A stretch of DNA of 64,000 bases, taken from assembly GCA_015069575.1 (NCBI GenBank), contig SVIH01000011.1, positions 376 to 64,375 of the forward strand, in the 5' to 3' direction. Shown in pieces: positions 34,960-53,037 of the stretch (its first letter is position 1; each line of letters begins with the position of its first letter). The translations under genes and the position numbers were made by a program. The notes under the pieces are model-generated. The model searched no databases. It was not told the origin of the DNA and was given only the letters and a program-made list of their open reading frames with translations. Source of the DNA: Clostridiales bacterium (GTDB lineage: Bacteria; Bacillota; Clostridia; Christensenellales; QALW01).

Positions 34960-36171
34960 ATGTTAAATGTTGCAGTTTTCTTTGGCGGAAAAACAGTTGA
35001 GCATGATGTTTCTATTGTAACGGCGCAACAACTTATACAGAATATGGATAAAACCAAATACAACCCTGTTCCTGTATATATTACAAGGGATGGTGATTGG
35101 TTTACCGGCGAAAAACTTGTCAGCATTGAGGCTTTTAAAAGTTTTGATAAAGGTGCAAAAGATGTAAAAAGGGTATACCTTCCTGCTAACACACGCATTA
35201 AGCAATTATATCTTTTTAAACCTGAAAAACAGGGCGTATTCAAAAAAGAAAATAATGTTTATATGACCATTGACTGTGCTATTATTGCGATGCACGGGTT
35301 AAATGGTGAGGACGGAACTTTACAAGGGTTGTTGGAACTTGCAGACATTCCGTATGCTTCAAGCGGTGTTTTGGGATCTTCATCAGGCATGGATAAAATT
35401 TTAATGAAAGCAGTTTTTCAAGGTGCGGGATTTCCAACATTGCCCTACACATTTTTTGATAGAGGCGATTTTGATAAAGAACCTGAAAAGGTGCTTGATA
35501 AGTGCGAAAGCATTTTAACTTATCCTATGTTTGTTAAGCCTTCCAATTTAGGTTCAAGTATTGGTATTACAAAGGCACATAACAGGGAAGAATTAAATAG
35601 TGCGATTTTAGTTGCAAGGGAATATGATAGGCGTATTTTAGTTGAACAGGGTATTGATAGCCCAAAGGAAATAAATTGCTCGGCTTTGGGATTTGCCTCA
35701 GAAGTTAAAGCATCTGTTTGCGAAATGCCATATAACAGTGATGAGTTTTTAACATTTTCAGATAAATATCTTAACGGCAACAAAAATCAGGCAGGTATGG
35801 AAGCCCTTTCAAGAAGAATACCTGCGCCTATTTCAAAAGAACTTACCAAGAAAATTGAGAATATGACCGTTCAGGCATTCAAACTTATGGACTGCAAAGG
35901 CGTTGTTCGTATTGACTATATGCTTGATAAAGACGATAATCTTTACATTAACGAAATTAATACTATTCCCGGCTCATTTGCATTTTATCTTTGGGAGCCA
36001 ATGGGTATAAATTACACCCGTTTAATTGATGAACTTATTGATATAGCATTTAAAGCCAACAAGGATAAAAAGCAGAACAATTTTGCTTTTGATTCTGAAA
36101 TTATTGCAGGGTTTGCCCGCAACAGCCAAAAAGCAGGTAAATTCGGTGGCGGAAAGTTTGGCAAAATATGA
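34960..36171 (+). CDS. ddl: D-alanine--D-alanine ligase
   Basis: VAVFFGGKTVEHDVS, ATP-grasp motifs and EINTIPG. Start set to the ATG with AAGGAG upstream. Confidence 0.92.
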   Translation: MLNVAVFFGGKTVEHDVSIVTAQQLIQNMDKTKYNPVPVYITRDGDWFTGEKLVSIEAFKSFDKGAKDVKRVYLPANTRIKQLYLFKPEKQGVFKKENNVYMTIDCAIIAMHGLNGEDGTLQGLLELADIPYASSGVLGSSSGMDKILMKAVFQGAGFPTLPYTFFDRGDFDKEPEKVLDKCESILTYPMFVKPSNLGSSIGITKAHNREELNSAILVAREYDRRILVEQGIDSPKEINCSALGFASEVKASVCEMPYNSDEFLTFSDKYLNGNKNQAGMEALSRRIPAPISKELTKKIENMTVQAFKLMDCKGVVRIDYMLDKDDNLYINEINTIPGSFAFYLWEPMGINYTRLIDELIDIAFKANKDKKQNNFAFDSEIIAGFARNSQKAGKFGGGKFGKI

Positions 36172-36743
36172 AAAAAGTAATAGCATTATTATTTGTTTTA
36201 GTGCTTTTGTTTACCGGTTGTGTTTCAGGCAGTGATAAAAAAACAGTAAATAGCGTGCTTGACCAATATTTTTCCTGTTTAAAATCAAGGGAATACGAAA
36301 AAGCCAATCAGCTGGTTGTTCAGGCTGATGAAAACATAATTTTTTCAATTGAAGCAAGCGCAGTAAACGATCTTATTTTTAAAGATATCAAGTATGAAAT
36401 ATGGAAAATTTATTCTAAGGATAAATATCTTGTGGCAGAAACAGTTGTTACACAGATAAGCCTTAAATCAGCGTACATTGATACTGTTAAAGAATATGCT
36501 GAATATGTTGAAGAAGCGAAAAATCAGAACAAAATTTTCACAGAACAAGCATTAAAAGAAAAGTGGGACGAAATCTTTTATAAGCATGTGGCTTCGGTAA
36601 AAGAAAAGTCTGTGTTTAAATGCGATATTTATATAAATGTTGAAGATAAAAATTCCCCCCAAATACTTATGACTGCAGATTTCAGGAATTGTTTGTTTGG
36701 TGGCGAATTAGATGCAATAAACATGTTAAATCAAATGAAATAA
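36168..36743 (+). CDS. hypothetical lipoprotein
   Basis: Signal peptide with a lipobox (LLFTGC). Confidence 0.6.
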   Translation: MKKVIALLFVLVLLFTGCVSGSDKKTVNSVLDQYFSCLKSREYEKANQLVVQADENIIFSIEASAVNDLIFKDIKYEIWKIYSKDKYLVAETVVTQISLKSAYIDTVKEYAEYVEEAKNQNKIFTEQALKEKWDEIFYKHVASVKEKSVFKCDIYINVEDKNSPQILMTADFRNCLFGGELDAINMLNQMK

Positions 36744-38931: not shown

Positions 38932-39525
38932 ATGAATTTTCAACAAGAACAGGATAATATTATAAAAGGTTTAACCTTTAAACCAAGATTACTGTTACAT
39001 TCTTGTTGCGGACCGTGTAGCAGTTATTGTATTGAAGCGTTAATAAAACACTTTGATGTTACTGTTTTATGGTATAACCCTAATATTCAGCCTAAAAGTG
39101 AATATGACCTTCGTTTAACCAATCAAATAAAACTAATTAAAGAGTTTGAAAAGCAAGGTAAATTAACGCTGATTGAAATCCCCTATGATGAACAGGAGTT
39201 CTTTTCTTATGTTTTAGGATTAGAGCAAGAAAAAGAGGGGGGCAAGCGTTGCACGGAATGTTTTAAATTAAGGTTAAACCAAACCGCGAAAATAGCAAAG
39301 GAACAAAACTTTGATTATTTTACAACTACGTTAACGGTTTCACCCCACAAAAATGCTCCTTTAATAAATGAAATAGGATATTCTTTGGCAGAAAAATATT
39401 CAACAAAGTTCTTGCCTTGCGATTTTAAAAAGAAAAACGGATACAAACGCTCTATTGAACTTTCAAAGCAATTAAATATTTACCGCCAAAACTATTGCGG
39501 TTGCATTTTTTCATTAAACGAATAA
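38932..39525 (+). CDS. queH: epoxyqueuosine reductase QueH (DUF208)
   Basis: LLLHSCCGPCSSY and YCGC motifs. Confidence 0.85.
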   Translation: MNFQQEQDNIIKGLTFKPRLLLHSCCGPCSSYCIEALIKHFDVTVLWYNPNIQPKSEYDLRLTNQIKLIKEFEKQGKLTLIEIPYDEQEFFSYVLGLEQEKEGGKRCTECFKLRLNQTAKIAKEQNFDYFTTTLTVSPHKNAPLINEIGYSLAEKYSTKFLPCDFKKKNGYKRSIELSKQLNIYRQNYCGCIFSLNE

Positions 39526-39554
39526 AAACAGGCTCTTGCGAGCCTGTTTTTTTG
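39524..39554. terminator. bidirectional terminator
   Basis: Stem ACAGGCTC / GAGCCTGT followed by a T7 run. Confidence 0.85.
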
Positions 39555-39563
39555 TAAATTATA

Positions 39564-40955
39564 TTAAATAAAATCTTCGATATTGCCTAAAATTCCATAA
39601 TCTGCATAATCAAAAATAGGCGCGTCTTTATCGGGGTTGATTGCAATAACAGTTCCTGCCCGTTGCATACCAACAATGTGGTGAACTGCCCCTGAAACGC
39701 CAATGGCTATATAAACCGGCGGGCTTACTGTTTTGCCTGTTAATCCAACTTGCAGACTGTAAGGAAGAATATCATTATCAACTGCTTTTCTTGTGGTGGA
39801 AATATCTGCATTAATGGTAGAAGCAAATTCTTTTAATTTTTCAATATGGTCTTTTGCACCGTAACCAAGAGCGATTATTATATCACTATCTGTTTTTGCA
39901 GTTCTTACCGTTGCCATTGCGGGCATAGTAAGGCTTTCTATTTTAGCGATAATACTGCCTGAAAGGGCAGGACGGTACATAATCAGTTTATTACCATCAG
40001 TTTCAAGTGTTGTGCAATCGGCACAAAGCCCAAGGTTAAGCATTGCGCTTACTTTTGCAGAAGTTTCTTTGCTCCAGGCGTCGCTTGCCCATAAAACAGC
40101 GTTGGGCTTTTGCTCTTTTATAATTTCAGCAATAGTTTCAGCGTCAGTTTTATCAACAATAGTAATATCGTCACTTACAGTTTGCGCAAAACTTAACGGA
40201 TCCTCTCCTACAATAAATACTTTATTTAATTTTGTATTGTTATTCATTAAAACATCAGTTTTAGAACTGTTTTTACTTAACCCTGCATCTATTGCTGATT
40301 GCAATTGGGTAAAGGGAATAAACTGGCACTTTCTTTTGCCTGATTGATTTTCAAAGGTTTTAAGCACCCTTGTAGGCGAGCCTGTAAGACCGCATTTTTT
40401 TATATCAGCGCCAATATCTTGTGCTGACCATATTTCAACTGTTCCCATTTTAGATAATATACTGGGAAGCCTTAGATTGTTAATGCGTTCAACAGTAATT
40501 AATGCAGGAAGTAATACCTTTTGAACACCCATTTCACGAGTGGTGCATGTAATGGTATCGTTGATATCATTAATTTCCATAACATTGGTTATAAGGTTTA
40601 AGTTTGCATAAACAGATAACATTGGTCCTGTTTGCGCAGTATCACCAACCAAGGTTTGCCTGCCACAGAAAACAAGGTCAGGGGACAGTTTTTTTACTGC
40701 TAAAGAAAGAGCGTATGCAGTTGCTAAAGTATCAGCGCCGGCAAAGGCTTTATCTGATAAAAGTATAGCCCTTTTTGCACCAAGCCGTGTAAGGCGTAAA
40801 AGAAAATCTTTTGTTGTTAAGGGCCCCATACTTATTATAGTAACCTCTGCCCCGGGAATGCTTAAGGCAGCCTCATAAGCGCAAGCGTCGAATGGGTTGA
40901 TTTCACCGTCAAGCCCTTGACGGATACAAACAAGTATCTTCATATTATCTCTCAT
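39564..40955 (-). CDS. fused electron transfer flavoprotein (EtfB-like N-half, EtfA-like C-half)
   Basis: N-terminal KILVCIRQ...NPFDACAYEAAL is EtfB-type. C-terminal YIAIGVSGAVHHIVGMQRAGTVIAINPDKDAPIF is the EtfA FAD domain. One continuous ORF. The start may be the ATG at 40943. Confidence 0.8.
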   Translation of the reverse strand: MRDNMKILVCIRQGLDGEINPFDACAYEAALSIPGAEVTIISMGPLTTKDFLLRLTRLGAKRAILLSDKAFAGADTLATAYALSLAVKKLSPDLVFCGRQTLVGDTAQTGPMLSVYANLNLITNVMEINDINDTITCTTREMGVQKVLLPALITVERINNLRLPSILSKMGTVEIWSAQDIGADIKKCGLTGSPTRVLKTFENQSGKRKCQFIPFTQLQSAIDAGLSKNSSKTDVLMNNNTKLNKVFIVGEDPLSFAQTVSDDITIVDKTDAETIAEIIKEQKPNAVLWASDAWSKETSAKVSAMLNLGLCADCTTLETDGNKLIMYRPALSGSIIAKIESLTMPAMATVRTAKTDSDIIIALGYGAKDHIEKLKEFASTINADISTTRKAVDNDILPYSLQVGLTGKTVSPPVYIAIGVSGAVHHIVGMQRAGTVIAINPDKDAPIFDYADYGILGNIEDFI

Positions 40956-42414
40956 TATAAATAGGTGCTAATGCATCATGTATTTTTTTATAAGATTCAA
41001 AAACTTTGCGGTACTTAAGAGTGTTTTCAGTGTTAGGATAAGTAATATCAGATTCTTTAACACACTTTTCAACTGCATCAAGGGGGTCTTTAAAAACGCC
41101 AACCGCAATACCTGCAAGCATTGCTGAACCTAAAGAGGAATCACTGCTTTGTGTGGTTTTAAGCGCTATTCCAAGTGCGTCTGAAATCATCTGGCGCCAC
41201 AGTTTTCCTTTTGTACCGCCGCCTATTGCGGTGGCAACTGAATTATAGGGAATATTTAAAGAATCAAGATACAATTTGCTATCAAGTAATGAATATGCAA
41301 CGCCTTCTAATACTGCGCGGGTGAAGTGTGCTTTTGTGTGTGTGGCGCGAACACCTGTAAAACTACCGCAAAGCATAGGATCAGCATAGGGGGTTAATTC
41401 ACCGTTAAGATAGGGGTGGAAAATTAGTCCATCACAACCAATGGCTATGTCTTTTGCGCCATCGTCAAGTTCTTTGTATTCGCCGCCGAATGTATCTCTG
41501 TACCAACGGTAAGATGCTGCGCATGATTTTGTTGCAGTGCCTGGATACCAAAGGCCTTCTGAAATGTGTGAATAGTTTACAAGGTGCTTATCAGGGTAAG
41601 GTTTATCGGTAATAACACAAATTCTGCCTGCTGTTGCAAGTTTAACGGTTACATCACCTTTTTTAACTGCACCGCTTGCAAAAACTTCCATAACAGTATC
41701 TGTTGTTCCGCAAATAACGGGAATTCCTTGCTTAAGTCCTGTTAACTGTGAAGCCTCAGAAGTAACACTTCCGATAATGTCGGTAGGTTTAACTATAGGC
41801 GGAAGCATTTGGGTAGTTATACCTGCTAATAAGCAAAGGTCATTATCCCATTGCATTTTGTTGCAGTCAAAAAGCATACTTCCCTGTGCTTCAATATAAT
41901 CGGTGCAGAAAACGCCTGTTAAGAAATAGCGCACATAATCTTTTTCGAAAAATATATATTTTGATTTTTCGAAGTTTTCAGGTTCGTTATCTTTAAGCCA
42001 TATAAGTTGTGGAAGCGTCCATATAGTATTTGGCTTATGAAAGGTTTTTTTAAAAATTTCGTCACCTAAAGAATCAAGCAAAATATCTGCCTGTTTTCTT
42101 GAACGGGTATCAGTCCAATGAATTGCGTTGCGAACAGGGTTAAAATTTTCATCGCAAACAAGAAAAGAATGGGTTGCTGAATCTATTGCTATTGCCAAAA
42201 TATCAGCACTATCAATACCGCTTTTTGCAAGTATTGATTTACTGTTTTTTAAAAGGGCATTAATCCAATCTTCAGGATCTTGTTCGCAAGCGCCTGCTTG
42301 TGGATATAATGTAGGGTATTCAACTGTATTTTCGGCAATTATATTGCCATTTGTATCAATAAGCGTTGCTTTTGAAGCGCCGCCGCCAAAATCTATACCT
42401 AAAAGATATTTCAT
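40945..42414 (-). CDS. FGGY family carbohydrate kinase (xylulokinase-like)
   Basis: LLGIDFGGGASKATL N-terminus, GGG(T/A)K near the C-terminus. Length 489 aa. Confidence 0.9.
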   Translation of the reverse strand: MKYLLGIDFGGGASKATLIDTNGNIIAENTVEYPTLYPQAGACEQDPEDWINALLKNSKSILAKSGIDSADILAIAIDSATHSFLVCDENFNPVRNAIHWTDTRSRKQADILLDSLGDEIFKKTFHKPNTIWTLPQLIWLKDNEPENFEKSKYIFFEKDYVRYFLTGVFCTDYIEAQGSMLFDCNKMQWDNDLCLLAGITTQMLPPIVKPTDIIGSVTSEASQLTGLKQGIPVICGTTDTVMEVFASGAVKKGDVTVKLATAGRICVITDKPYPDKHLVNYSHISEGLWYPGTATKSCAASYRWYRDTFGGEYKELDDGAKDIAIGCDGLIFHPYLNGELTPYADPMLCGSFTGVRATHTKAHFTRAVLEGVAYSLLDSKLYLDSLNIPYNSVATAIGGGTKGKLWRQMISDALGIALKTTQSSDSSLGSAMLAGIAVGVFKDPLDAVEKCVKESDITYPNTENTLKYRKVFESYKKIHDALAPIYNER

Positions 42415-42429
42415 GCTTTTTACATTCCT

Positions 42430-43089
42430 TTAATATTTAATCTGGAAATTTGTTCCTGTAATGCCTGCAACAACGCCTTTATTGATTAATGATTTGTTGT
42501 CAACATGTGCGATAATCCATTTGTTTTTGCGGAATAATAACGGATTAACTGTTTTTACAGTAAGATCAGTATTAGTGTCTTTAGGTAAGCCAACAATACA
42601 ACCAAAGCCGTCATCACTTACCTGGCAGGGACAGTAGTGTAATGAAGTTGCATAAACTTCAACAGCGGTGCCTGCCGGCAAATAAAACGCCTTAAATTTA
42701 GAAGAATCAATTTTATTGTTTTCAACATCCCAAAGATGACCTAAAATAAGCACGATAGGGGTGATGGCAATATTAATTTCACTTGAAGTATGCCATTCTG
42801 TAGCATCCATAAAAGAGTTGTAACCCCAACAGTATCCTACCTGTGATCCAAGAGTGCCAAAGAATTCGTTTTTAAGTTCTGTGGCAATATCAAGGTTTTC
42901 AAATTCCTTAACTGAGGGCAAGTATGCTGAACCGCTTTCTGTGTTGGGGATTTTTTTTGCTTCAGAAACAAGTTCTGAAATATCAAGGCCGTTTATAATT
43001 CTGCCAAATGATGAAAATTCTTTATCACTTACATCATAAAATTCAATTTCCGGGTTTAATTTTTTTAATTTTTCTAACATTTTATTCAC
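42430..43089 (-). CDS. uncharacterised protein, DUF4867-like or cupin-like (assignment from memory)
   Basis: 219 aa with no catalytic motif recognised. Sits between the IolB-like gene and the kinase gene. Confidence 0.45.
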   Translation of the reverse strand: MNKMLEKLKKLNPEIEFYDVSDKEFSSFGRIINGLDISELVSEAKKIPNTESGSAYLPSVKEFENLDIATELKNEFFGTLGSQVGYCWGYNSFMDATEWHTSSEINIAITPIVLILGHLWDVENNKIDSSKFKAFYLPAGTAVEVYATSLHYCPCQVSDDGFGCIVGLPKDTNTDLTVKTVNPLLFRKNKWIIAHVDNKSLINKGVVAGITGTNFQIKY

Positions 43090-43168
43090 CTTATTTAAAA
43101 TATATTTAAATTGCTTTATGCAATTCTATGTTCGTTTTTAAAATACTATTTTTTGTTCAAATTAGGAT

Positions 43169-43200
43169 AATAGAGATATACCCGTTGGCATATCTCTATT
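43169..43200 (-). other. intercistronic 11-bp-stem hairpin
   Basis: AATAGAGATAT-N10-ATATCTCTATT directly after the iolB-like stop. There is no clear T-run. Confidence 0.4.
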
Positions 43201-43207
43201 TTAAAAT

Positions 43208-44008
43208 TTATCTTTTTTCTATCCAGGCGTGTTCAGGGTCAGAACTTCTGTTAAAGCCCTGATAATCCCCTGCCATAAGCCAAAGGAAATATGTTTTATA
43301 ACCGGGGGTTGAAACGGTTGTATGGTATCCGTAAGGGAATTCTACAAGCTCGTCATTTTTAACCCTGTATGCTTCGTCAAGTTCGCCGTCAGCAGTATAG
43401 AGGCATTGAACTGCAAAGCCTTGCTTGGGGTCAAACAGGAAGTAATAAATTTCTTCAGCAATACATTCTGTGGGCATATTGTTTTCATCATGCTTGTGTG
43501 GTGGGAATCCTGCCCAGTTACCTTCAGTACAATATGCTTCGCCGATAGTTAAGATTTTGGCATTTGAATTACCGTCAATAATAAAACTTGTTTCTCTCTG
43601 GAAAGGTTGTTCGCCTAAAAGTTTTAAAATGACATGGTCTTCGCGCAAAACCTGAGGCTGTGTTTTTTCCTGAACAGGTGTTGCGCAAACTGCTATCTTA
43701 ATATGGTCAATAGCTTCTATTGAAAGCTCCTGCTCTTTAGGCATATAAAAACTTTCAGCCTTGCGGTTTTCAAAAACAGACATTCTGTTACCAACATTTT
43801 CATAAACTTCATCGTTTACATAAACATTGCAGTGACCTTCAAGCATAATAAAAGCAGTTTCTTTATCTTCTGTATCGAAGAATAACTTCTGACCTGCGTC
43901 AAGTTCAATAATGCCAAACTCAAGTTTTTTAAGGCTACATTCACCAATTTTGCAAATGGGTGTATAACCTATGCTTGATTTATACGCTTTCTTAAAGTTC
44001 ATATTCAT
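43208..44008 (-). CDS. IolB-like 5-deoxy-glucuronate isomerase family cupin
   Basis: Colinear with B. subtilis IolB by eye (GNWAGFPPHKHD..., GYHTTV..., DPEHAWI). Confidence 0.82.
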   Translation of the reverse strand: MNMNFKKAYKSSIGYTPICKIGECSLKKLEFGIIELDAGQKLFFDTEDKETAFIMLEGHCNVYVNDEVYENVGNRMSVFENRKAESFYMPKEQELSIEAIDHIKIAVCATPVQEKTQPQVLREDHVILKLLGEQPFQRETSFIIDGNSNAKILTIGEAYCTEGNWAGFPPHKHDENNMPTECIAEEIYYFLFDPKQGFAVQCLYTADGELDEAYRVKNDELVEFPYGYHTTVSTPGYKTYFLWLMAGDYQGFNRSSDPEHAWIEKR

Positions 44009-44036
44009 TCTCCTTTAAGTTTTGTAGTATCAAAAT

Positions 44037-44096
44037 GGGGAACACATTCCCTTGTGCTTATAAAAATATTAAATATAGAACACAAGGGATCAGTGT
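44037..44096. repeat. inverted pair of degenerate REP-like units (REPIN-like)
   Basis: GGGGAACACATTCCCTTGTG ... GAACACAAGGGATCAGTGTT. Together they form a long imperfect hairpin. The arms resemble the 24.8-25.5 kb hairpins but with shortened loops. Confidence 0.3.
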
Positions 44097-44108
44097 TATT
44101 GATATAAA

Positions 44109-45206
44109 TTATTCACCTAAAATTAAATCTTCAATAGAAATTATTTCAACATCTTCTGCTACTGCTTTTAATGAAACATATTCAGAAACGCAAGCTGTTA
44201 CAATAGCGTTTGCACCGATGCTTGTTGCATTAAAGATTCTGCGTGCAGCAACTTTTTTAATAATTTCAGGCATATATTGTGCCATTAAAATGTTACCTGC
44301 CCAAACAGTTTCAGCACGGTTAAGAAGCATTTCATCTAAAGAAGCGTAAGCGCTTACGATTTCGCGCGCAGGTTCTGTTTCTTCAAGATCTCTTGAAAGC
44401 TGATAAGGATCCTGGAAAACAACTTTTTTGCCGCTATTAACAGCTTTTAACTTACCATCTTTAATAAGATCTGCTACAAAGCTTGTGTATGTAACAACAT
44501 TAGCCTTAACTTCGATGCCGTATTCCTTGTAAAGTTGTTTAATAGCCTTTGAATCATTGGGGTCATAAACAACAACAGTTTTATACTGATCAAGAACTTT
44601 AGCACAAGCAGCCATTTGTTCTTTGGTTTCGTTTGCAGCGCCGATAAGGAAATCAAGTTGAACGCCTGTAGGAACTTCGTTTTCTAAAACTGCAAAATCA
44701 ACACCTGCTTTTTCAAGAACTTTAATTGCCTTTAAAGCCTGCTGGCAAGCCATAAACTTAGCGTCAACACCAAGTAAAAGAAGAGTATCTTTTTTATCGG
44801 CGTGAGCCTTAATTGCTGCTGTTAAAGTATCGCAAGTTGCAGTTTTTCCGTAAGCATTACCTGTTTCGATACAGTTAGAAACAAGTGTCATAATATATTC
44901 GGGAAGTTTGCCTTCTAAAGCAGCCTGTAATCTTGTTTCTTTTGTGAACATTACAGGATCCCAACCTGTGATACAATCATGTACGCAAGCACCGCAGGTG
45001 CAGCATTCATAAATATTATCCATAATTTCGCTAAGGTCAATTGCTCCACGGTTTACAAGAGAAATACCAAGTGCCCTTGCCCTTGCGGTGTTTCTTTCCT
45101 GACCTGTTGCATTACCGATAGGGCAGATGTGATGGCACATCCAGCAAAAACGACAGGAATCAACATGCTGTTTGCATTTTTCTGACATTATCATTGTTAT
45201 TTCCAC
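44109..45206 (-). CDS. (Fe-S)-binding protein, GlcF/GlpC-like with degenerate Cys-rich domains
   Basis: Two CxxCxxCxxxC(P) motifs (CRFCWMCHHICP, CCTCGACVHDC). The C-terminal two thirds lack CCG cysteines. Confidence 0.78.
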   Translation of the reverse strand: MEITMIMSEKCKQHVDSCRFCWMCHHICPIGNATGQERNTARARALGISLVNRGAIDLSEIMDNIYECCTCGACVHDCITGWDPVMFTKETRLQAALEGKLPEYIMTLVSNCIETGNAYGKTATCDTLTAAIKAHADKKDTLLLLGVDAKFMACQQALKAIKVLEKAGVDFAVLENEVPTGVQLDFLIGAANETKEQMAACAKVLDQYKTVVVYDPNDSKAIKQLYKEYGIEVKANVVTYTSFVADLIKDGKLKAVNSGKKVVFQDPYQLSRDLEETEPAREIVSAYASLDEMLLNRAETVWAGNILMAQYMPEIIKKVAARRIFNATSIGANAIVTACVSEYVSLKAVAEDVEIISIEDLILGE

Positions 45207-45214
45207 CCTTTCTA

Positions 45215-46651
45215 TTAAAGACCTAATTTAAACGGATTCATAATTCCGTTGGGGTCAAGTGTTTTCTTAAGTCCTTCAAATACTTGCATTGCAGGACCAT
45301 ACTGTTCTTTCATAAGACGGCCTAATTTAATACCAACACCGTGGTGGTCATTTACAACACCGCCATGTGCCAATGCTGCGCGAACACCACATGTCCAAAC
45401 AGCCTGATGAAGTCTGAGTGCTTCAACGGGATCTTTAGGAACATCTTTACCTTCAATAATAAAGCGGTCATAAACCATTGCGCCCCACTCATACCAGTGT
45501 GAGAAGTGTGCAATAAATTTAGCCTGTGGGAAGTTGGTTTCGATAGCTTCCTTCATTGCCCAATAGATTTCTTCAATCTTGCCATAAGGTGCGATTGTAT
45601 CCATTGTACCAAACATCTGAGGAATATCCATCATGTGACCGGGATAGAAGAATGTAATCTTTTCTTTCCACCATTTTTCACCGTATTCGCTGCCAAGGTC
45701 TTCAGCGCCATACTTTTTAAAGGTTTCAAGAAGAATCTTTTCTTCAACATCAACCATTTCCTTAACGCCTTCATAAGCGATGTTCATGAAAGCACCTTTG
45801 CGTTCAACACCAACGATCTTTTTGATAAGTGAAGCGGTTTCAGCTTCGTCGTACAAACGCATTACGGAAGGTTTAAATTTCTGTAAAAGTTCACGGCTTG
45901 CTTTGAAAGCGCCATTCATATCCTGGAATAAGAAGCCACGGAAGCGTCTTTCTTCAGGCTGATCAAAAATACGGATCTGTGCTTTGGTAATGATACCAAG
46001 TGTTCCTTCTGAACCGATGAAAATCTGGTTAAGGTCAGGACCTGCAGCGTGTTTAGGTGCAGAACATGTATTAATGATATCACCGTTAGGAAGAACAACT
46101 TCCATCTGTAATACCATATCGTCAATTTTGCCGTATTTGGTTGAAACAACACCGATACCACGGTGTGCAAGGAAACCACCAACAGTTGAGCAGGTAAGTG
46201 AAGAAGGATAGTGCATTGTTGCTTTGCCTACTTCGTTTGCAGCCCATTCAATGTGCTTATAAATAGCACCTGTGCCACATTCAATATACATACCTTCGGT
46301 ATTAACTTCGTAAATCTTGTTCATACGCTTGGTATCAAGAATAATACCACCGCAAACAGGAATAGCGCCACCCTGTGTTCCGCCACCTGCACCCCATGTT
46401 GTAACAGGAAGTTTATAGTAGTTAGCAATTTTTACTACTTTTGAAACCTCTTGTGCGTTTTCGGGGCAAACAACAAAGTCAGCCTCAGGCATGCGGCAAC
46501 CACGGTCAGCCCACATACGAGATAACCAATAGTAGTCAACACTGTGTGTTACCTTGTCAATCGCTCTTGTTGAACAATTCTCTTTGCCGACTGCATCTTC
46601 AAGTTCGGTCAAAATCATTGCAAACAAAAATTCATTCATTTGATACTGCAT
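45215..46651 (-). CDS. FAD-binding oxidoreductase (GlcD / alkyl-DHAP-synthase-like, FAD_binding_4)
   Basis: TWGAGGGTQGG, C-terminal HHGVG and LDPNGIMNP motifs. Confidence 0.9.
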   Translation of the reverse strand: MQYQMNEFLFAMILTELEDAVGKENCSTRAIDKVTHSVDYYWLSRMWADRGCRMPEADFVVCPENAQEVSKVVKIANYYKLPVTTWGAGGGTQGGAIPVCGGIILDTKRMNKIYEVNTEGMYIECGTGAIYKHIEWAANEVGKATMHYPSSLTCSTVGGFLAHRGIGVVSTKYGKIDDMVLQMEVVLPNGDIINTCSAPKHAAGPDLNQIFIGSEGTLGIITKAQIRIFDQPEERRFRGFLFQDMNGAFKASRELLQKFKPSVMRLYDEAETASLIKKIVGVERKGAFMNIAYEGVKEMVDVEEKILLETFKKYGAEDLGSEYGEKWWKEKITFFYPGHMMDIPQMFGTMDTIAPYGKIEEIYWAMKEAIETNFPQAKFIAHFSHWYEWGAMVYDRFIIEGKDVPKDPVEALRLHQAVWTCGVRAALAHGGVVNDHHGVGIKLGRLMKEQYGPAMQVFEGLKKTLDPNGIMNPFKLGL

Positions 46652-46803
46652 TTTTTTCTCTCCTTTTAATAAAATATTTGTATCATTTTTTAATTGTAAT
46701 GAGGCGCATAAAGCACCCTTAATTTACAAAATTACCCTATCATCATTAAGGTTCACCAAAGATTATAACAGCAAAGTATAAAAAAATGAATGTTATAATC
46801 ATT

Positions 46804-46823
46804 ACGTTTTTTGTAAAAAACGT
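46804..46823. promoter_or_regulatory. 20-bp palindrome in the divergent araC/operon control region
   Basis: ACGTTTTTT-GT-AAAAAACGT abutting the -35 of the araC promoter (TTCAAT-16-TGCTATAAT at 46824-46851). Confidence 0.35.
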
Positions 46824-46882
46824 TTCAATTTATAAAAATATGTGCTATAATATAAAAAAGAAACCATAAAGGAGATGAAATT

Positions 46883-47719
46883 ATGAAAATTATTCCTTTT
46901 CAAGAACTGTACAGCGCTGAGTTTTTTATAAGCGAACCTTTGGTAAAAGGGCAGAATTGGTATGGTAGAAATAATCTTTATTCTTGTATGGGCAAACCAA
47001 AGCCGTCACACACGTTACTTTGGTTTAAAAACTGCCGCGCAAAAATTACCGATAGCACCGGAAAAGTTATTTTTGCAGAAAAAAATCAGATAGCATATAT
47101 GTCAAAGGGCATTGAATATATGGTGCATTTTTACGATACTGCACCAAACCAAGAAGATAGTATAGCATTTCATTTTCAACTTGTTGACAGATTTGGCGCA
47201 GAAATCACGCCTACATTATCACCGCAAATTTGTATAAAAAATGTTGATACAACAATGGCACTTTCTATTGAAACCGCAGCAGAAGAATTTAATAAAAACA
47301 TCGTTTGCTTACCTGTTATTACTTCTGTTATTTATCAGTTGCTGGGTCTGGCGTGCCAAATTCAACGAAAACGCGTTGTAAATCACAAGTATAAGTACAT
47401 CAGTGAAGGTATCGAACTGATGGAAAATAATTCGGACAAGCCACTTAACGAAATTGCCAAAATCTGTGGCGTAAGCGAAGGTTATTTCAGAAAACTTTTC
47501 AGGGAATATAGTGGGCAGAATCCCATTGATTTTAGACAAAAATACCGGGTAGAAAAGTCAAAACACCTTCTTCTTTTAGATATTTTTTCTATTAGTGAAA
47601 TCGCAGAAGAACTGCATTTTTCTGATGTTTATCACTTTAGTAAAACTTTTAAAAAGTTCACAGGAGTGTCTCCCCAAAAATATATTAAGCAAAATAATGC
47701 CGAAAAAAATCAGTTATAA
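46883..47719 (+). CDS. AraC family transcriptional regulator
   Basis: C-terminal double HTH (IAKICGVSEGYFRKLFREY..., ISEIAEELHFSDVYHFSKTFKKFTGVSP) and a cupin-like N-domain. Confidence 0.9.
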   Translation: MKIIPFQELYSAEFFISEPLVKGQNWYGRNNLYSCMGKPKPSHTLLWFKNCRAKITDSTGKVIFAEKNQIAYMSKGIEYMVHFYDTAPNQEDSIAFHFQLVDRFGAEITPTLSPQICIKNVDTTMALSIETAAEEFNKNIVCLPVITSVIYQLLGLACQIQRKRVVNHKYKYISEGIELMENNSDKPLNEIAKICGVSEGYFRKLFREYSGQNPIDFRQKYRVEKSKHLLLLDIFSISEIAEELHFSDVYHFSKTFKKFTGVSPQKYIKQNNAEKNQL

Positions 47720-48891: not shown

Positions 48892-49605
48892 TCAGAAAAA
48901 AATATGAACTCCTGCAATACGGGCAATATTTATAAGCATATCGCCATTTAAACAACCAACTGCGCTATAAATACTTGTCCATGTGCCAAAGCGCTTCATA
49001 CCAATAGCAACTTTTTCGGTATTAGGATATATACCTAAAGGCATAACATCATTATCTTCTATAAAAAATCTTGGTTGCGGAAGGTTTTCAAACTTTATTG
49101 TGCCAAAATGGGTATGAACCTCTGTTTCATCACCGATAAGTTTCACAATATTTATTTCAGTTGCGTTTTGTATGCCTGCAAGTTCGTTGTTAACATAATC
49201 AGGTCCGTATATCCATAAAACAGTTTTATCGTTATCTTTTAATTTCTGAATAAAATCCTGAGAAACAATATCAAAAGAATCAAAGAAGATGATAAGTTTA
49301 TAATTATCCAGATTAATATTTTCTGCCTGGCATGAACAGCAAACATCATATGGCGCGCCCATATTCTGCAAACCTTCCCTTTGTGTTAAAAAGAAAGTTT
49401 CGTTGATTTTAGTTTGTTCTTCGTTATAGCTTTTATCAGAAACTATTACAAGCACCTGTGCAATCCTTGTTGCATCTGAATTTTTAAAGGAATCAGCTTG
49501 ATTTTTTAATTTTTCAGAACAAGCATTGCCTGAAAGAGTAATATATTTATAAGCCAATGAATCTTTATTAAGTTTTTCATTTAATGTAAAAAGAATTTTT
49601 TCCAT
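48892..49605 (-). CDS. hypothetical protein (possibly GH42 trimerisation-domain-like), likely 3' frameshifted
   Basis: GAGG RBS present. The ORF stops right after a T7 run. A 32-codon continuation is open in the neighbouring frame (48795-48893). Confidence 0.4.
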   Translation of the reverse strand: MEKILFTLNEKLNKDSLAYKYITLSGNACSEKLKNQADSFKNSDATRIAQVLVIVSDKSYNEEQTKINETFFLTQREGLQNMGAPYDVCCSCQAENINLDNYKLIIFFDSFDIVSQDFIQKLKDNDKTVLWIYGPDYVNNELAGIQNATEINIVKLIGDETEVHTHFGTIKFENLPQPRFFIEDNDVMPLGIYPNTEKVAIGMKRFGTWTSIYSAVGCLNGDMLINIARIAGVHIFF

Positions 49606-50069: not shown

Positions 50070-50444
50070 TTAAATATCTTTTTTCCATAAACCGTGAAGA
50101 TTACAGTAAGCAAAAGCCGCAACAGGTTTTTCATCCGTTAAAGCAAAGGTAACGGTAGCGTCACCGTTTAAGCACTTTCTCTGTCCGCCCTTGTCGGTTT
50201 GTAAGTATACCCATAAAATACTGTGTTCTTCAGTCATAGGGTGAATTACTTCACCAACAGTAACGGTAACAAGGTTATTTTCAACCTTAACAACAGGAAT
50301 GTGTTTTTCCTTGCTTGCTTCTTTTACACCTGCCTCAAGTTTGGTCATTTTCTGACCGCAACACATAAGGGGGACACCTGCAGAATGGATCATTCCAACA
50401 ATGTTACCACAATGTTCACAAATAAAAAATTTAGTTTCGCACAT
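50070..50444 (-). CDS. dfx: desulfoferrodoxin (2Fe superoxide reductase)
   Basis: N-terminal desulforedoxin Cys motif (CEHCGN...CCG) plus the SOR domain. Length 124 aa. Confidence 0.92.
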   Translation of the reverse strand: MCETKFFICEHCGNIVGMIHSAGVPLMCCGQKMTKLEAGVKEASKEKHIPVVKVENNLVTVTVGEVIHPMTEEHSILWVYLQTDKGGQRKCLNGDATVTFALTDEKPVAAFAYCNLHGLWKKDI

Positions 50445-50459
50445 AATTAATATCTCCTT

Positions 50460-52238
50460 TTATATAATTTCTTCAAAATCTTCTCTTGGGTGTTTGCATA
50501 ATGGGCAGATATAATCATCAGGAATATCCTCACCCTCATAAACATATCCGCAAATGGTGCAAACATAACCTTTTACGCCTTTTGTTTCAGGCTTTGGCTT
50601 AACGGATGCGTGGTAGTAAGAATAAGTCATTGTTTCTTTATCAGAAACTACCTTTGCCTCTTCAACAGAGCAGATAAACATACCGTGGCTATGAAGGTCA
50701 ACATACTGTTCAACTTTAAGGCTCATATATGAATTAATATAGTGTGGTAAAACCACAAGACCGTTTTCGGAATACTGGGGTGTGCAACCCTCAAACTTAT
50801 CGGTGTTTCTTCCGGATTTAAAACCAAAGTTTTCAAACACGCTAAAGGGTGCCTCGATAGAAAGGCAGTTAACATTCATTTTGCCCGTCTTTTTAATAAT
50901 GTGGTGTGAATAGTTATCTTTATTGATAGTTACTGCAATTCTGTTAGGTGAATTTGTAACCTGCGCAACTGTGTTTACAATTAAACCGTTGTGCTTTTTA
51001 CCGTCAAAACTTGTTACAACATATAATCCGTAGCCAATTTTAAATAATGCAGACAAGTCGTTGGTATCTTGCTTTTTAGTGTATTCGGCGGTTAATTCAT
51101 CACTTAACGCATCAAGTTGCTTTGAACTTTCTTCGTTTAATGCAGAAAGTATCTTTACTGTGTTTTGGGCAAAAGTTAAGTTTTTGCTGTTTTCAAGCAT
51201 ACCTTTCATAACCTTTGTTGCCATTGGTGCCCAGGAGCCGTTTTCAATAAAGGCAACGGTGCGGTTAGAATAATTGCGCTCTGTTAAATGGTCAATAAAC
51301 TGGCGCATAAAGGGGAATATATCAGCGTTATAAGTGGTGGTTGCAAGCACAAGTTTAGAATATCTGAAAGCATCTTCAACGGCTTCAGCCATATCGCACC
51401 TTGCAAGGTCGTTTACAACAACCTTGGGGCAACCCTTGGCTTTTAATTTATCCGCTAACTGATAAACCGCCTTTTTAGTGTTACCGTAAACAGAAGTATA
51501 GCAAATTACAATGCCATCTTCTTCCACTTGATAACTTGACCATATATTATAAAGATTAAGATAGTATTCAAGGTTTTCTGTTAAAACAGGGCCGTGAAGT
51601 GGGCAGATGGTTTTGATATCAAGATTCTGCGCTTTTTTAAGAAGGCTTTGAACCTGTGCACCGTATTTTCCAACAATGCCGATATAATAACGCCTTGCTT
51701 CGCAAGCCCAGTCTTCCTCAATATCAAGTGCGCCAAACTTACCAAACCCGTCGGCAGAAAAAAGCACCTTATCAAAGGAATCATAAGTTACAATAACCTC
51801 AGGCCAATGCACCATAGGCGCAGTAATAAAGGTTAAAACGTGCTTACCTAAATTAAGGGTATCGCCTTCGTTTACAACGATTCTGTTGTCGGCAAAATCG
51901 GTATTAAAGAAATTTTTCATCATATTAAAGGCTTTAAGTGAAGCAACCACTTTTGCATTTGGGTAAACCTTTAAAAAGTTTACGATGTTTGCTGCGTGAT
52001 CAGGCTCCATATGTTGAACGATTAAATAATCGGGCTTTATGCCATTAAAAACTTCTTCTAAATTATCAAGCCATTCGTTTGTAAAATTAATATCAACGGT
52101 GTCCATAACGGCTATTTTTTCATCCATAATAATATATGAATTATAACTTATTCCGTTAGGAATAATGTATTGACCTTCAAAAAGATCGGTAATATGGTCG
52201 TTTACACCAACATATTTAATATCATCTGTTATAAACAT
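50460..52238 (-). CDS. multidomain flavodiiron protein (FDP core + flavin-reductase-like domain + C-terminal rubredoxin)
   Basis: Metallo-beta-lactamase-like diiron N-domain (HMEPDH), a flavodoxin-like domain, a flavin reductase-like segment, and a C-terminal CTICGY...CPLC. Confidence 0.9.
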   Translation of the reverse strand: MFITDDIKYVGVNDHITDLFEGQYIIPNGISYNSYIIMDEKIAVMDTVDINFTNEWLDNLEEVFNGIKPDYLIVQHMEPDHAANIVNFLKVYPNAKVVASLKAFNMMKNFFNTDFADNRIVVNEGDTLNLGKHVLTFITAPMVHWPEVIVTYDSFDKVLFSADGFGKFGALDIEEDWACEARRYYIGIVGKYGAQVQSLLKKAQNLDIKTICPLHGPVLTENLEYYLNLYNIWSSYQVEEDGIVICYTSVYGNTKKAVYQLADKLKAKGCPKVVVNDLARCDMAEAVEDAFRYSKLVLATTTYNADIFPFMRQFIDHLTERNYSNRTVAFIENGSWAPMATKVMKGMLENSKNLTFAQNTVKILSALNEESSKQLDALSDELTAEYTKKQDTNDLSALFKIGYGLYVVTSFDGKKHNGLIVNTVAQVTNSPNRIAVTINKDNYSHHIIKKTGKMNVNCLSIEAPFSVFENFGFKSGRNTDKFEGCTPQYSENGLVVLPHYINSYMSLKVEQYVDLHSHGMFICSVEEAKVVSDKETMTYSYYHASVKPKPETKGVKGYVCTICGYVYEGEDIPDDYICPLCKHPREDFEEII

Positions 52239-52270
52239 AATTTCACCTCAAAATTATTATACCATTAAAC

Positions 52271-52951
52271 TTATAAATTATCAAGAATCTTTCCATCTGT
52301 TGAGATAACAGTTATCTGCCAGGGAATAAATTTTCCGCTGTTATGTAATGCCTTTTTTACTGCGTTTTCAAGCCCCGAACAACAGGGCACTTCCATACGC
52401 ACAACATTTACGCTTTTTATATTATTGTTTTTCAAAATTGCGGTAAGTTTTTCAGCGTAATCACCTTCATCAAGTTTAGGGCAACCTATAAGAGTGATGC
52501 GATTTTTTATAAAATCGTTATGAAAGTTACCGTAAGCGTAGGCGGTGCAATCAGCGGCAATCAACAAGTTTGCATTATCAAAATAAGGGGCGTTTACAGG
52601 CACTAACTTAATTTGACAGGGCCATTGTGGAAGGCGACTGGGAATAAACTCGCTTTGAGCAAAGTTTTCTCTTTTAAGCACCTTTGATTTTGTGCCCGGA
52701 CATCCGCAGGGCAACTTGTTTTTGTTCGAAATTACTGTTTGCTCATTATATTCAAGGGCTTCCTTTTCTATAAAAGAAATTGCGTTCATGGGGCAGGCAG
52801 GTAGGCAATCGCCTAAACCATCACAATAATCTTCCTTTGTTAATTTTGCTTTGCCTTCAACCATTTCAATAGCACCTTCGTGGCAAGCGTTCACACATAA
52901 ACCGCAACCGTTACAGGTTTCTTCATCTATCTGAATTATTTTGCGAACCAT
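52271..52951 (-). CDS. 4Fe-4S dicluster domain protein (FrdX-like ferredoxin-type)
   Basis: CNGCGLCVNAC and CDGLGDCLPACP motifs. Start set to the ATG with AAGGAGG upstream. Confidence 0.8.
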   Translation of the reverse strand: MVRKIIQIDEETCNGCGLCVNACHEGAIEMVEGKAKLTKEDYCDGLGDCLPACPMNAISFIEKEALEYNEQTVISNKNKLPCGCPGTKSKVLKRENFAQSEFIPSRLPQWPCQIKLVPVNAPYFDNANLLIAADCTAYAYGNFHNDFIKNRITLIGCPKLDEGDYAEKLTAILKNNNIKSVNVVRMEVPCCSGLENAVKKALHNSGKFIPWQITVISTDGKILDNL

Positions 52952-53006
52952 TATAAATCCTCCTTGCTTTTGTAACCTTATTATAGTATAATCATCACGT
53001 AAAGTA

Positions 53007-53022
53007 TGTTGAATTTTCAACA
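53007..53022. promoter_or_regulatory. 16-bp perfect palindrome, candidate Crp/Fnr-family operator
   Basis: TGTTGAATTTTCAACA. Its centre is at -41.5 if the reverse-strand TATAAT (52985-52980) is the -10 box. It also lies in the 5' leader of the regulator gene. Confidence 0.5.
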
Positions 53023-53037
53023 AAATGGAGAAAAATT

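Follow-up and report, generated by a model that had tools for sequence, protein, structure and literature searches.

In Acetobacterium woodii, the Ldh-EtfAB complex (LctBCD) offers a means of oxidizing a relatively high-potential donor without quinones, by joining an FAD dehydrogenase of the VAO/PCMH fold, with an FAD-oxidase_C domain, to an electron-transferring flavoprotein (ETF) of the bifurcating type. In the Brucella erythritol route, the kinase EryA and the FAD dehydrogenase EryB are followed by the isomerases EryC, EryH and EryI, which lead to an intermediate of the pentose-phosphate pathway. In Escherichia coli K-12, the ygc cluster (ygcN-O-P-Q-R-S-U-W, yqcE, ygcE; NC_000913.3, 2892657-2903374) bears 'putative' annotations only. 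We analyzed a locus that shares features with each of these systems. It lies at positions 39564-47719 of a 64,000-nucleotide stretch of contig SVIH01000011.1 (GCA_015069575.1) of an uncultured gut Clostridium, called here the window, and consists of a gene for an AraC-family regulator and, divergent from it, an operon of six genes, which encode an FAD-dependent flavoenzyme (referred to as the oxidase), an Fe-S protein, an IolB-like cupin, a DUF4867 protein, an FGGY kinase and a fused EtfB-EtfA protein. All of these belong to known enzyme families, yet there is no precedent for finding together a dehydrogenase resembling alkyl-dihydroxyacetone phosphate (DHAP) synthase (AGPS, also ADPS), a CCG-type Fe-S protein without the CCG cysteines, a compact ETF, an FGGY kinase and cupins. 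The operon is very probably an uncharacterized one for the ETF-coupled catabolism of a sugar or polyol.

The nearest cultured analogue is the ygc cluster, itself an orphan. It encodes YgcU (a putative FAD dehydrogenase), the FGGY kinase YgcE, the ETF alpha and beta subunits YgcQ and YgcR, the FixC/FixX-like proteins YgcN and YgcO, a GlpP-like antiterminator, the short-chain dehydrogenase/reductase YgcW and two transporters of the major facilitator superfamily. As in the operon, one sugar-type locus thus unites an FGGY kinase and an ETF with an FAD dehydrogenase that resembles AGPS, so that the same logic exists in E. coli. The ygc ETF, however, is made of two subunits, which match the fused ETF at ~28% identity over short stretches, and YgcE is 23% identical to the operon's kinase. 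Electrons from YgcU probably exit via YgcN/O to quinone and not via a GlcF-like Fe-S protein, and ygc has its short-chain dehydrogenase/reductase but no IolB, DUF4867, aldolase or PfkB. Because ygc is likewise without an assigned function, there was no annotation to transfer; in the literature searched, no functional description of it was found.

Other described pathways share single elements with the locus. Domains were called with Pfam and NCBIfam, and the cutoffs cited are those of the NCBIfam models. As in the Brucella Ery and GlpK/GlpD systems, an FGGY kinase would be followed by a flavin dehydrogenase acting on a polyol phosphate and, as in Ery, isomerases would then lead to a pentose-phosphate intermediate, with no aldolase required, which matches the gene set of the operon. 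EryB and GlpD, however, are quinone-donating enzymes of the DAO family, not homologous to the AGPS-like oxidase, and the Ery isomerases are of the TIM and RpiB types and not cupins. The GlpK model gave 155 with the kinase (cutoff 590) and the GlpC model 35 (cutoff 278), and no GlpA or GlpB genes were found. The operon has in common with sulfo-SFT and sulfo-EMP2 a DUF4867 member (SqvB/SqvD cluster, 9GYY), and its fuller relatives, described below, also have an SftI-like isomerase, a mutarotase, a kinase and an F_bP-type aldolase (PMC11968277). A core of FGGY kinase, oxidase, Fe-S protein and ETF is not known in sulfoglycolysis, the SftI-like isomerase is absent from the window, and no locus examined encodes a GH31/sulfoquinovosidase, a sulfolactaldehyde reductase or dehydrogenase, or a transaldolase. 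As for the lower myo-inositol pathway, the IolB equivalog model was passed, marginally (218.5 against 205); the window has no PfkB kinase as a candidate for IolC, its one class II aldolase homologue is presumably a housekeeping enzyme (see below), and IolG, IolE, IolD and IolA are missing from every locus examined. Because at least one defining feature is lacking in each case, the locus belongs to none of the GlcDEF, LctBCD, GlpK/GlpABC, myo-inositol, sulfoglycolysis and AGPS families. The initial annotation knew of no described pathway with this gene set and, as a matter of fact, homology searches matched no characterized pathway and no description of the set was found in the literature searched. 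The supplement of a DUF4867 neighborhood survey contains one fragmentary singleton with this context, which is not discussed there.

The encoded proteins

The oxidase had first been described as GlcD/alkyl-DHAP-synthase-like. Its FAD_binding_4 domain and its likeness to AGPS were upheld, but a GlcD/LctD-like active site was not. The GlcD models returned 195 (TIGR00387, cutoff 568) and 107 (NF008408, cutoff 897), and a GlcE gene is absent from the operon. Among relatives of solved structure, the alkyl-DHAP synthases ranked highest (2uuu, 147 bits; 4bby, 138 bits), followed by LDHD (129), LctD (104) and glycolate oxidase (101). The match to E. coli YgcU was better than that to AGPS, with 30% identity over the full length and 184 bits, and the YgcU motifs RLYD, Y and HHHGIG are common to the oxidase. 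The alignment with AGPS runs end to end over the FAD and cap domains. In it, R265 falls on AGPS R419 (changed in 4bc7, R419H), Y394 on Y578 (changed in 4bca, Y578F) and D435-H436-H437 on the HHH loop H615-H616-H617, so that two of the three His are kept and His615 is replaced by Asp. Hence, the catalytic residues of AGPS, namely Arg419, Tyr578 and those of the HHH loop, all have counterparts save H615, which is D435. R265, Y394, H436 and H437 are invariant in 15 oxidase orthologues, which are 82-96% identical and in which 62% of all positions are invariant. The N-terminal domain of AGPS is lacking: the alignment starts at AGPS residue 137 (2uuu) or 206 (4bby), with ~55 oxidase residues before it. 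Also unlike AGPS, the oxidase is encoded in a sugar-catabolic context, with no lipid genes in the cluster, and this context and the Fe-S and ETF partners would imply net redox turnover rather than acyl or alkyl exchange.

The metal site of LctD consists of His377, His384 and Glu422, next to the catalytic His423 in an EHG motif (PMC9232219). The oxidase does not have it. D435-H436-H437-G stands where LDHD has G-E-H-G ('GEHGIG'), the Glu ligand (Glu422 in LctD) being replaced by His, and the H.GDGN.H region is replaced by an AGPS-like AHFSHWY..G...Y. A GlcD or LctD identity was thus ruled out by the model scores and by the active-site residues, and the oxidase is AGPS/YgcU-like, not GlcD/LctD-like, in its active site. 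With such a site, the analogy with lactate dehydrogenase becomes weaker for the chemistry but is still good for the electron path. Of the parallel first drawn with GlpK/GlpABC and LctBCD, the logic of kinase, FAD dehydrogenase and ETF is retained. Other differences from LctBCD are a truncated one-chain ETF without the ferredoxin domain of EtfA, a separate 2 x [4Fe-4S] protein, and linkage to a sugar kinase and cupins rather than to a lactate permease or racemase. We noticed that, in the same loci (L001-L030) and across bacterial families, the oxidase is 82-96% identical, the ETF 43-78%, the Fe-S protein 48-89% and the kinase 56-84%, which speaks for a very strong constraint on the oxidase.

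The Fe-S protein showed weak full-length matches to TfrB (residues 13-340), GlpC, LdhH and DsrK. Its two CX2CX2CX3C motifs for 4Fe-4S clusters, C18/21/24/28 and C68/71/74/78, show no variation among 17 orthologues, which have no other conserved cysteine. The C-terminal ~280 aa, cysteine-free as far as conservation goes, align weakly with CCG proteins of the HdrD/GlpC/GlcF type and carry none of the GlcF-type CCG cysteine motifs. This agrees with the protein having been annotated, from the start, with two 4Fe-4S motifs but degenerate CCG domains.

The fused EtfB-EtfA protein is encoded by a single open reading frame (ORF), which spans two ETF-domain stretches and an ETF_alpha domain. What had been pointed out as an unusual, shortened single-chain ETF proved to be a member of a conserved ~460-aa family, whose closer relatives make up more than 100 clusters (90% clustering) of 454-468 aa and 71-100% identity. 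An exhaustive search of 1.8 billion sequence representatives gave ~30 clusters at 50% identity of compact fusions of 450-500 aa, reaching down to ~33% identity; the remoter matches past these were EtfB-EtfA fusions of normal length, 560-640 aa. A frameshift, or frameshift-repair, artefact was ruled out by the conservation of length and sequence across the more than 100 clusters.

The best PDB matches of both ETF halves were all bifurcating (LctB/C, CarD/E, 4kpu, 5ol2, 7koe), and the EtfB half gave 99-117 bits with bifurcating EtfB, LctB being at 117, versus 28-42 bits with non-bifurcating EtfB. Signatures of bifurcating ETFs are the EtfB motif DGDTAQVGP at the bifurcating FAD (b-FAD), the NAD+ motif RXFXG, an SPT motif and an EtfA Arg at N5 of b-FAD (PMC9232219). 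In the fused ETF, the b-FAD motif is present as VGDTAQTGP (residues 103-111), with T106 and Q108 invariant and G104 nearly so in 28 compact fusions; SPT is conserved at residues 193-195; R328-P329 is invariant, R328 being the equivalent of the EtfA Arg that contacts b-FAD. RXFXG reads KAFAG, and its first position is Lys or variable in the compact-fusion family. Instead of two subunits with full domains I, II and III, there is one chain of 459 aa. EtfA domain I is cut to ~105 aa, ~60 of its N-terminal residues being missing; the linker between domains I and II is gone, as is the counterpart of 5ol2 EtfA residues 161-207; and the EtfB C-terminal arm beyond LctB residue 243 is missing. Pfam and the PDB alignments detected no Fer4 in the fused ETF, that is, neither the ferredoxin domain nor the cysteine motif of the EtfA N-terminus. 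An AF2 model built from 28 family members had a pLDDT of 92.1 and a pTM of 0.89, and Foldseek aligned it with LctB at a TM of 0.75. Collectively, these features indicate that the fused ETF is probably of the bifurcating type. Two relatives were found in other settings: on a Lachnospiraceae contig (L013:1503-5015), a PF12831 FAD-dependent oxidoreductase comes before the compact ETF and IolB after it, no FGGY lying between, and in a Thermoguttaceae metagenome-assembled genome (MAG; L031:10007-11422) it stands alone, with no cluster partner in the 10-kb flanks examined.

The kinase passed the XylB equivalog model TIGR01312 marginally (387.9, cutoff 380.25) and failed the E. coli XylB model NF011601 (200.6, cutoff 912); its best PDB matches, at ~180 bits, were xylulokinase and gluconate kinase. 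E. coli XylB also phosphorylates xylitol and D-arabitol. The IolB-like cupin, whose IolB model (TIGR04378) score was given above, had as its best PDB match 2qjv, an uncharacterized IolB-like protein. Of 27 related loci, 20 have an IolB, which belongs to one of two sequence types, either 75-90% or 36-40% identical to the operon's IolB, and the second type scored 200.2 with TIGR04378, under the cutoff. Both types occupy the same cluster position (L001:5869-6657 versus L002:7456-8256), with no obvious correlation with other gene content. The DUF4867 protein matched the crystal structure 9GYY (Bacillus megaterium, sulfo-SFT cluster) with 194 bits, and the metal ligands E-x-H-x3-E...H of that structure (PMC11968277) appear conserved in the alignment. 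The same structural study found no activity, reported frequent adjacency and occasional fusion to FGGY kinases, and proposed that DUF4867 proteins act on ketoses (PMC11968277). Thus, of the two cupin-type isomerases first annotated, the IolB family assignment was kept, and DUF4867 is no proven isomerase.

Related clusters and gene linkage

A genome scan with the compact-ETF alignment yielded 26 loci (L007-L032), all in uncultured gut or rumen MAGs and belonging to Acutalibacteraceae, Oscillospiraceae, Lachnospiraceae, Faecalimonas, Faecousia, Ructibacterium, Lachnoanaerobaculum and one Thermoguttaceae. Further contexts came from contigs encoding close homologues, their genes being mapped by BLAST. 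In total, the cluster is present in at least 25 uncultured species of gut or rumen Clostridia. Its recurring order starts with a divergent AraC or RpiR regulator, an SftI/FucI-like isomerase (467 aa), the oxidase, the Fe-S protein and a class II ketose-phosphate aldolase, and goes on with a PfkB kinase, IolB, optional mutarotase, DUF4867 and AEC transporter genes, the FGGY kinase and the fused ETF. The FGGY gene is directly upstream of the compact ETF in 21 of the 26 loci, while the oxidase and Fe-S genes are adjacent in every case, the Fe-S gene always lying directly downstream of the oxidase gene. At ordinary two-gene ETF loci, cluster partners were found in none of 54 controls. The neighborhood of the fused ETF had been named beforehand as a check on the locus; the synteny, which recurs at 26 independent loci and is absent from the 54 control ETF loci, is not due to chance. 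This linkage across loci designates the kinase and the oxidase/Fe-S/ETF system as the constant core.

Aldolase, PfkB and IolB genes were present in 14 of the 15 loci that hold both oxidase and ETF, some of which add a mutarotase or an AEC transporter, and in full clusters the aldolase, PfkB and IolB genes overlap. In contrast, the operon has no SftI/FucI-like isomerase, aldolase, PfkB, mutarotase or transporter gene. The only class II aldolase homologue that tblastn found in the window (17887-18735, 30% identical) is far from the operon and presumably a housekeeping enzyme. Given the 14 of 15 loci, the operon is a trimmed variant of a cluster of ~8-11 genes that is conserved in uncultured gut and rumen Clostridia. 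The absence of transporter and aldolase, mentioned in the initial annotation, therefore holds for this copy of the cluster but not for its relatives. The smallest version (L029) consists of RpiR and ETF-oxidase-FeS-FGGY, amid serA/serC-like genes, DNA polymerase III delta and comEC.

The PfkB kinase of the related loci scored 98 with the IolC model (cutoff 300), and gave 117 bits to ribokinase and 48 to the 1-PFK/LacC subfamily; their isomerase scored 100.5 with the SftI model (cutoff 700). Accessory genes differed by lineage. They comprised glycosidases (GH2, GH20C, GH29, GH4, GH16), a NagA-like deacetylase, an AGE epimerase, a MurQ-like SIS protein, a cupin resembling phosphomannose isomerase (PMI), a DUF89 damage-control phosphatase and a GDSL esterase. 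No transporter or hydrolase recurred around 30 loci, where only such lineage-specific accessories were found. The DUF89/ARMT1-like phosphatase lies in, or is appended to, the cluster at L012:5923-6795 and L090:11383-12255, and its presence in two lineages hints at a reactive or toxic sugar phosphate in the pathway. Directly beside the full cluster of L090 (12330-17670, minus strand), we noticed an unassigned PFL2-family glycyl-radical enzyme, which gave 255 bits with its subfamily model and ~178 bits with the models for the sulfopropanediol dehydratases HpfG and HpsG, reaching none of the cutoffs. Next to it are its radical-SAM activase, another FGGY kinase, shorter than the first, and a PMI-like cupin of a family that is also found inside the clusters of L011, L017 and L023.

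The locus, its control region and the rest of the window

The ORF listing, Pfam and NCBIfam recovered all seven genes with the coordinates and domains first assigned to them (Table 1). Four starts (ETF, Fe-S, IolB and DUF4867) were moved slightly inward on the basis of homologue alignments and metagenome gene calls; with this change, the ETF gene starts at the ATG at 40943, 1 nt past the kinase stop. The operon is closed by a terminator at 39551-39524 and flanked by housekeeping genes, which at one end are queH, a SpoU methylase, an aminotransferase, ddl and murF and at the other code for a peptidoglycan-binding protein. The contig itself, with identical proteins, recurs in three metagenomes (L004-L006), in which all six operon ORFs are intact.

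Table 1. Features of the operon region, in window coordinates.
Feature	Position	Strand	Evidence
AraC-family regulator, 278 aa	46883-47719	+	HTH_18 + HTH_AraC domains (Pfam)
Divergent control region, 231 bp	46652-46882	.	Sequence + inverted repeat I5
Predicted FAD dehydrogenase, AGPS/YgcU type, 478 aa	45215-46651	-	FAD_binding_4 + FAD-oxidase_C
Fe-S protein, 361 aa	44109-45194 (ORF to 45206)	-	Fer4_8 + Fer4_17
IolB/KduI-family cupin, putative aldose-ketose isomerase, 264 aa	43208-44002 (ORF to 44008)	-	PF04962, E = 1.6e-69
DUF4867 cupin metalloprotein, SftX/SqvD family, 216 aa	42430-43080 (ORF to 43089)	-	PF16161, E = 6.6e-70
FGGY carbohydrate kinase, XylB-like, 489 aa	40945-42414	-	FGGY_N + FGGY_C
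Compact single-chain EtfB-EtfA fusion, probably of bifurcating type, 459 aa	39564-40943 (ORF to 40955)	-	Pfam ETF x2 + ETF_alpha
Intrinsic terminator	39524-39551	-	12-bp stem, 5 G-C pairs; between convergent ETF and queH genes

The control region contains two extended -10 boxes, TGTTATAAT, arranged back to back in inverted orientation at 46758-46770 (minus strand) and 46791-46803 (plus strand). A good -35 hexamer was found for neither box within 46652-46882, and a scan for consensus promoters returned only a weak 9/12 site (46817-46790), site counts being near chance. A strong ribosome-binding site, AAAGGAGAG, precedes the oxidase ATG. The two -10 boxes may act as promoters. This fits the weak -35 noted at the outset but is no proof of the activator dependence that had been read from it. 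The divergent AraC gene also withstood comparison, as orthologues of 55-56% identity occupy the same divergent position in three related loci (L014, L016, L024), and a fourth (L088) has a divergent AraC-family gene too. AraC is not universal, and other lineages carry a divergent RpiR instead; such RpiR regulators, found in five lineages, have an SIS domain, which is compatible with a phosphosugar effector. The locus appears to be a functional, AraC-controlled catabolic operon.

Elsewhere in the window, an ORF of 2089 aa (54882-61151, minus strand) with eight FctA/Spy0128-like isopeptide domains, VWA and DUF7601 probably encodes a giant surface protein of the pilin or adhesin type. An oxygen-detoxification neighborhood extends over 50070-53706, with a desulfoferrodoxin (50070-50444), a 592-aa fusion of an ODP/metallo-beta-lactamase domain, flavodoxin, flavin reductase and rubredoxin (50460-52238), a 4Fe-4S dicluster protein (52271-53023) and a Crp-family regulator (53038-53706); a small rubredoxin ORF was called within it in L004. 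Two conserved ORFs, of 237 aa (48892-49605, minus strand) and 191 aa (36168-36743, plus strand), had no Pfam or NCBIfam match.

A proposed pathway, its rivals and its meaning

We propose that the system resembles a sugar-kinase/isomerase pathway with an ETF-coupled dehydrogenase module grafted onto it, and that the kinase and the flavoenzyme would take care of successive intermediates in the breakdown of a single sugar alcohol or ketose. The order that we favor, albeit tentatively, puts the kinase first and has the flavoenzyme oxidize the phosphorylated polyol or ketol, following the logic of GlpK/GlpD and of Brucella EryA/EryB. A phosphorylated substrate would be favored because AGPS binds a DHAP derivative, because the minimal unit is made of kinase and dehydrogenase, and because regulators of the RpiR and GlpP types usually sense phosphorylated effectors. 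Electrons would flow from the flavoenzyme to the Fe-S protein, the ETF and finally NAD+, and reduced ferredoxin would probably be oxidized along with the substrate, in a confurcation like that of LctBCD. Such a route would be called for because flavin-level electrons cannot reduce NAD+ directly and quinones are probably lacking, the host being assumed to be one of the Clostridia without quinones. The IolB-like cupin, possibly with DUF4867, would then turn the aldose-type carbonyl product into a ketose phosphate of the pentose-phosphate or glycolytic pathway. The version found in the operon would run straight into the pentose-phosphate pathway, which would explain the absence of an aldolase, whereas in full clusters the IolB-PfkB-class II aldolase branch would lead to a ketose phosphate and from there to DHAP and an aldehyde or glyceraldehyde phosphate. 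We infer here the redox direction, which of kinase and dehydrogenase comes first, the path of the electrons and the role of each cupin; our guess at the class of substrate would be a pentitol, a tetritol, a hexitol or a rare sugar related to them.

Taken as a whole, this model, in which a kinase-linked polyol or ketose (or its phosphate) is oxidized by way of the ETF and without quinones before cupins isomerize the product, has in our judgment a probability of roughly 45%. In its favor are the kinase-ETF linkage, the type of the oxidase and that of the ETF, the two Fe-S motifs, the link between DUF4867 and FGGY kinases and the parallel with ygc. Several observations weigh against it. AGPS is not itself a net dehydrogenase. 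The mutarotase and SftI-like isomerase genes of the full clusters point to free aldoses, not polyols, and the variation of accessory genes by lineage gives no consistent hint as to the substrate; neither the operon nor the window encodes a transporter. Because the Arg of the NAD+ site in RXFXG is Lys or variable, coupling to NAD is not assured. The XylB equivalog pass equally fits the reverse order, in which a free polyol is first oxidized to D-xylulose and then phosphorylated. Finally, DUF4867 is a cupin metalloprotein without demonstrated isomerase activity (PMC11968277).

The marginal XylB pass makes this reverse order, from pentitol to D-xylulose to D-xylulose 5-phosphate, a serious alternative, though on balance an unlikely one. 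The complex would oxidize a free pentitol (xylitol, D-arabitol) or another polyol to D-xylulose and the FGGY protein would be a true xylulokinase, with DUF4867 presenting the ketose and the IolB-like and SftI-like isomerases feeding aldoses into the same ketose pool. Besides the score, it would let the minimal unit of L029 reach a central metabolite in two steps, and it suits a DUF4867 protein that is proposed to act on ketoses and that adjoins FGGY kinases (PMC11968277). Yet it leaves no role for the PfkB kinase and aldolase of 14 of the 15 full loci, the XylB score is marginal and the E. coli XylB model was missed by far, and the AGPS-type site might point to a DHAP-like phosphorylated ligand. 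An AGPS-type flavoenzyme might even have been turned into a genuine dehydrogenase, acting on a sugar or polyol phosphate that resembles DHAP, using carbanion/flavin-N5 chemistry and wired via the cysteine-less CCG-type Fe-S protein to the minimal ETF. We see this as a rather long shot; one possibility is that such an enzyme would oxidize the glycerol-phosphate moiety of kinase-phosphorylated glyceryl glycosides (from plant galacto- and sulfolipids), freeing the sugar without a glycosidase. A 2-hydroxy-acid dehydrogenase of the LctBCD/GlcDF type, oxidizing D-lactate, glycolate or D-glycerate formed as a by-product of sugar cleavage (by way of lactaldehyde, glycolaldehyde or the etherase acting on MurNAc-6-P), would account for the Pfam architecture shared with LctD and GlcD, the matches of 101-104 bits, the GlcF/GlpC-like Fe-S partner, the bifurcating-type ETF as in LctBCD and the MurQ-like etherase in L011 and L017. 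It is nonetheless improbable, as the GlcD score was far below cutoff, the Glu metal ligand is replaced and the AGPS-type R, Y and HH are invariant, the cluster has no aldehyde dehydrogenase, lactate permease or racemase, and the tight coupling to the FGGY kinase would be left unexplained.

Most characterized bifurcating ETF complexes (Bcd-Etf, CarCDE) run reductively, and the present one might do so too, NADH being bifurcated at the ETF to ferredoxin and, via the Fe-S protein and the flavoenzyme, to a high-potential sugar-derived acceptor (a diketo- or enone-sugar phosphate or a 1-O-substituted DHAP) that would serve as an electron sink. The flavin N5 adduct that AGPS forms at C1 of a DHAP derivative would suit such chemistry. 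We hold it for quite improbable: the cluster has no dehydratase or other enzyme that would make the acceptor, and the E. coli ETF is paired with FixCX-like proteins, usually feeding quinone, which argues for the oxidative direction. There is also a very slight chance that the operon is the decaying remnant of a variant of the lower myo-inositol pathway, in which IolB, IolC and IolJ act on 5-deoxy-glucuronate or a related uronate. The IolB cutoff was passed, the full clusters have overlapping genes in the order aldolase-PfkB-IolB, and AEC-type (anion) transporters and GH2 enzymes lie near some loci; but PfkB fell short of the IolC cutoff, IolG, IolE, IolD and IolA are missing, an inositol pathway offers no room for the invariant core (FGGY, oxidase, FeS, ETF), and the six ORFs are intact and identical in three metagenomes. 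Three further candidates were rejected. A sulfoquinovose pathway, considered for DUF4867 and the SftI-like isomerase, was discarded on low scores and the lack of a sulfoquinovosidase or sulfonate enzymes. A tagatose-6-phosphate pathway (PfkB as LacC, the aldolase as GatY) failed because PfkB is closer to ribokinase and IolC than to 1-PFK/LacC and because the invariant core would have no role. A glucuronate or other uronate route, suggested by nearby GH2 and AEC genes, needs no oxidizing step, and the accessory genes are inconsistent.

If the proposed pathway of ETF-coupled polyol or ketose oxidation is correct, it would be the first route of sugar or polyol catabolism driven by an AGPS/YgcU-type flavoenzyme, and it would extend electron-confurcating ETF systems beyond lactate oxidation. 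Were the AGPS-type enzyme recruited as a true dehydrogenase, this would amount to a new quinone-independent catabolic route and would de-orphan the widespread YgcU family, including the ygc cluster of E. coli. In either case, the locus would give a handle on orphans such as the ygc genes and the DUF4867 family, whose function crystallography left open, and its naturally minimized, single-chain bifurcating ETF could serve mechanistic work. Human and herbivore guts harbor many uncultured Acutalibacteraceae, Oscillospiraceae and Lachnospiraceae with the cluster, which may thus mark an unrecognized nutrient niche, for example a sugar alcohol from the diet or a rare sugar of plant or host origin. 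The core, if it works as proposed, would show how gut fermenters without quinones oxidize carbohydrate-derived alcohols that are 'too positive' for NAD+.

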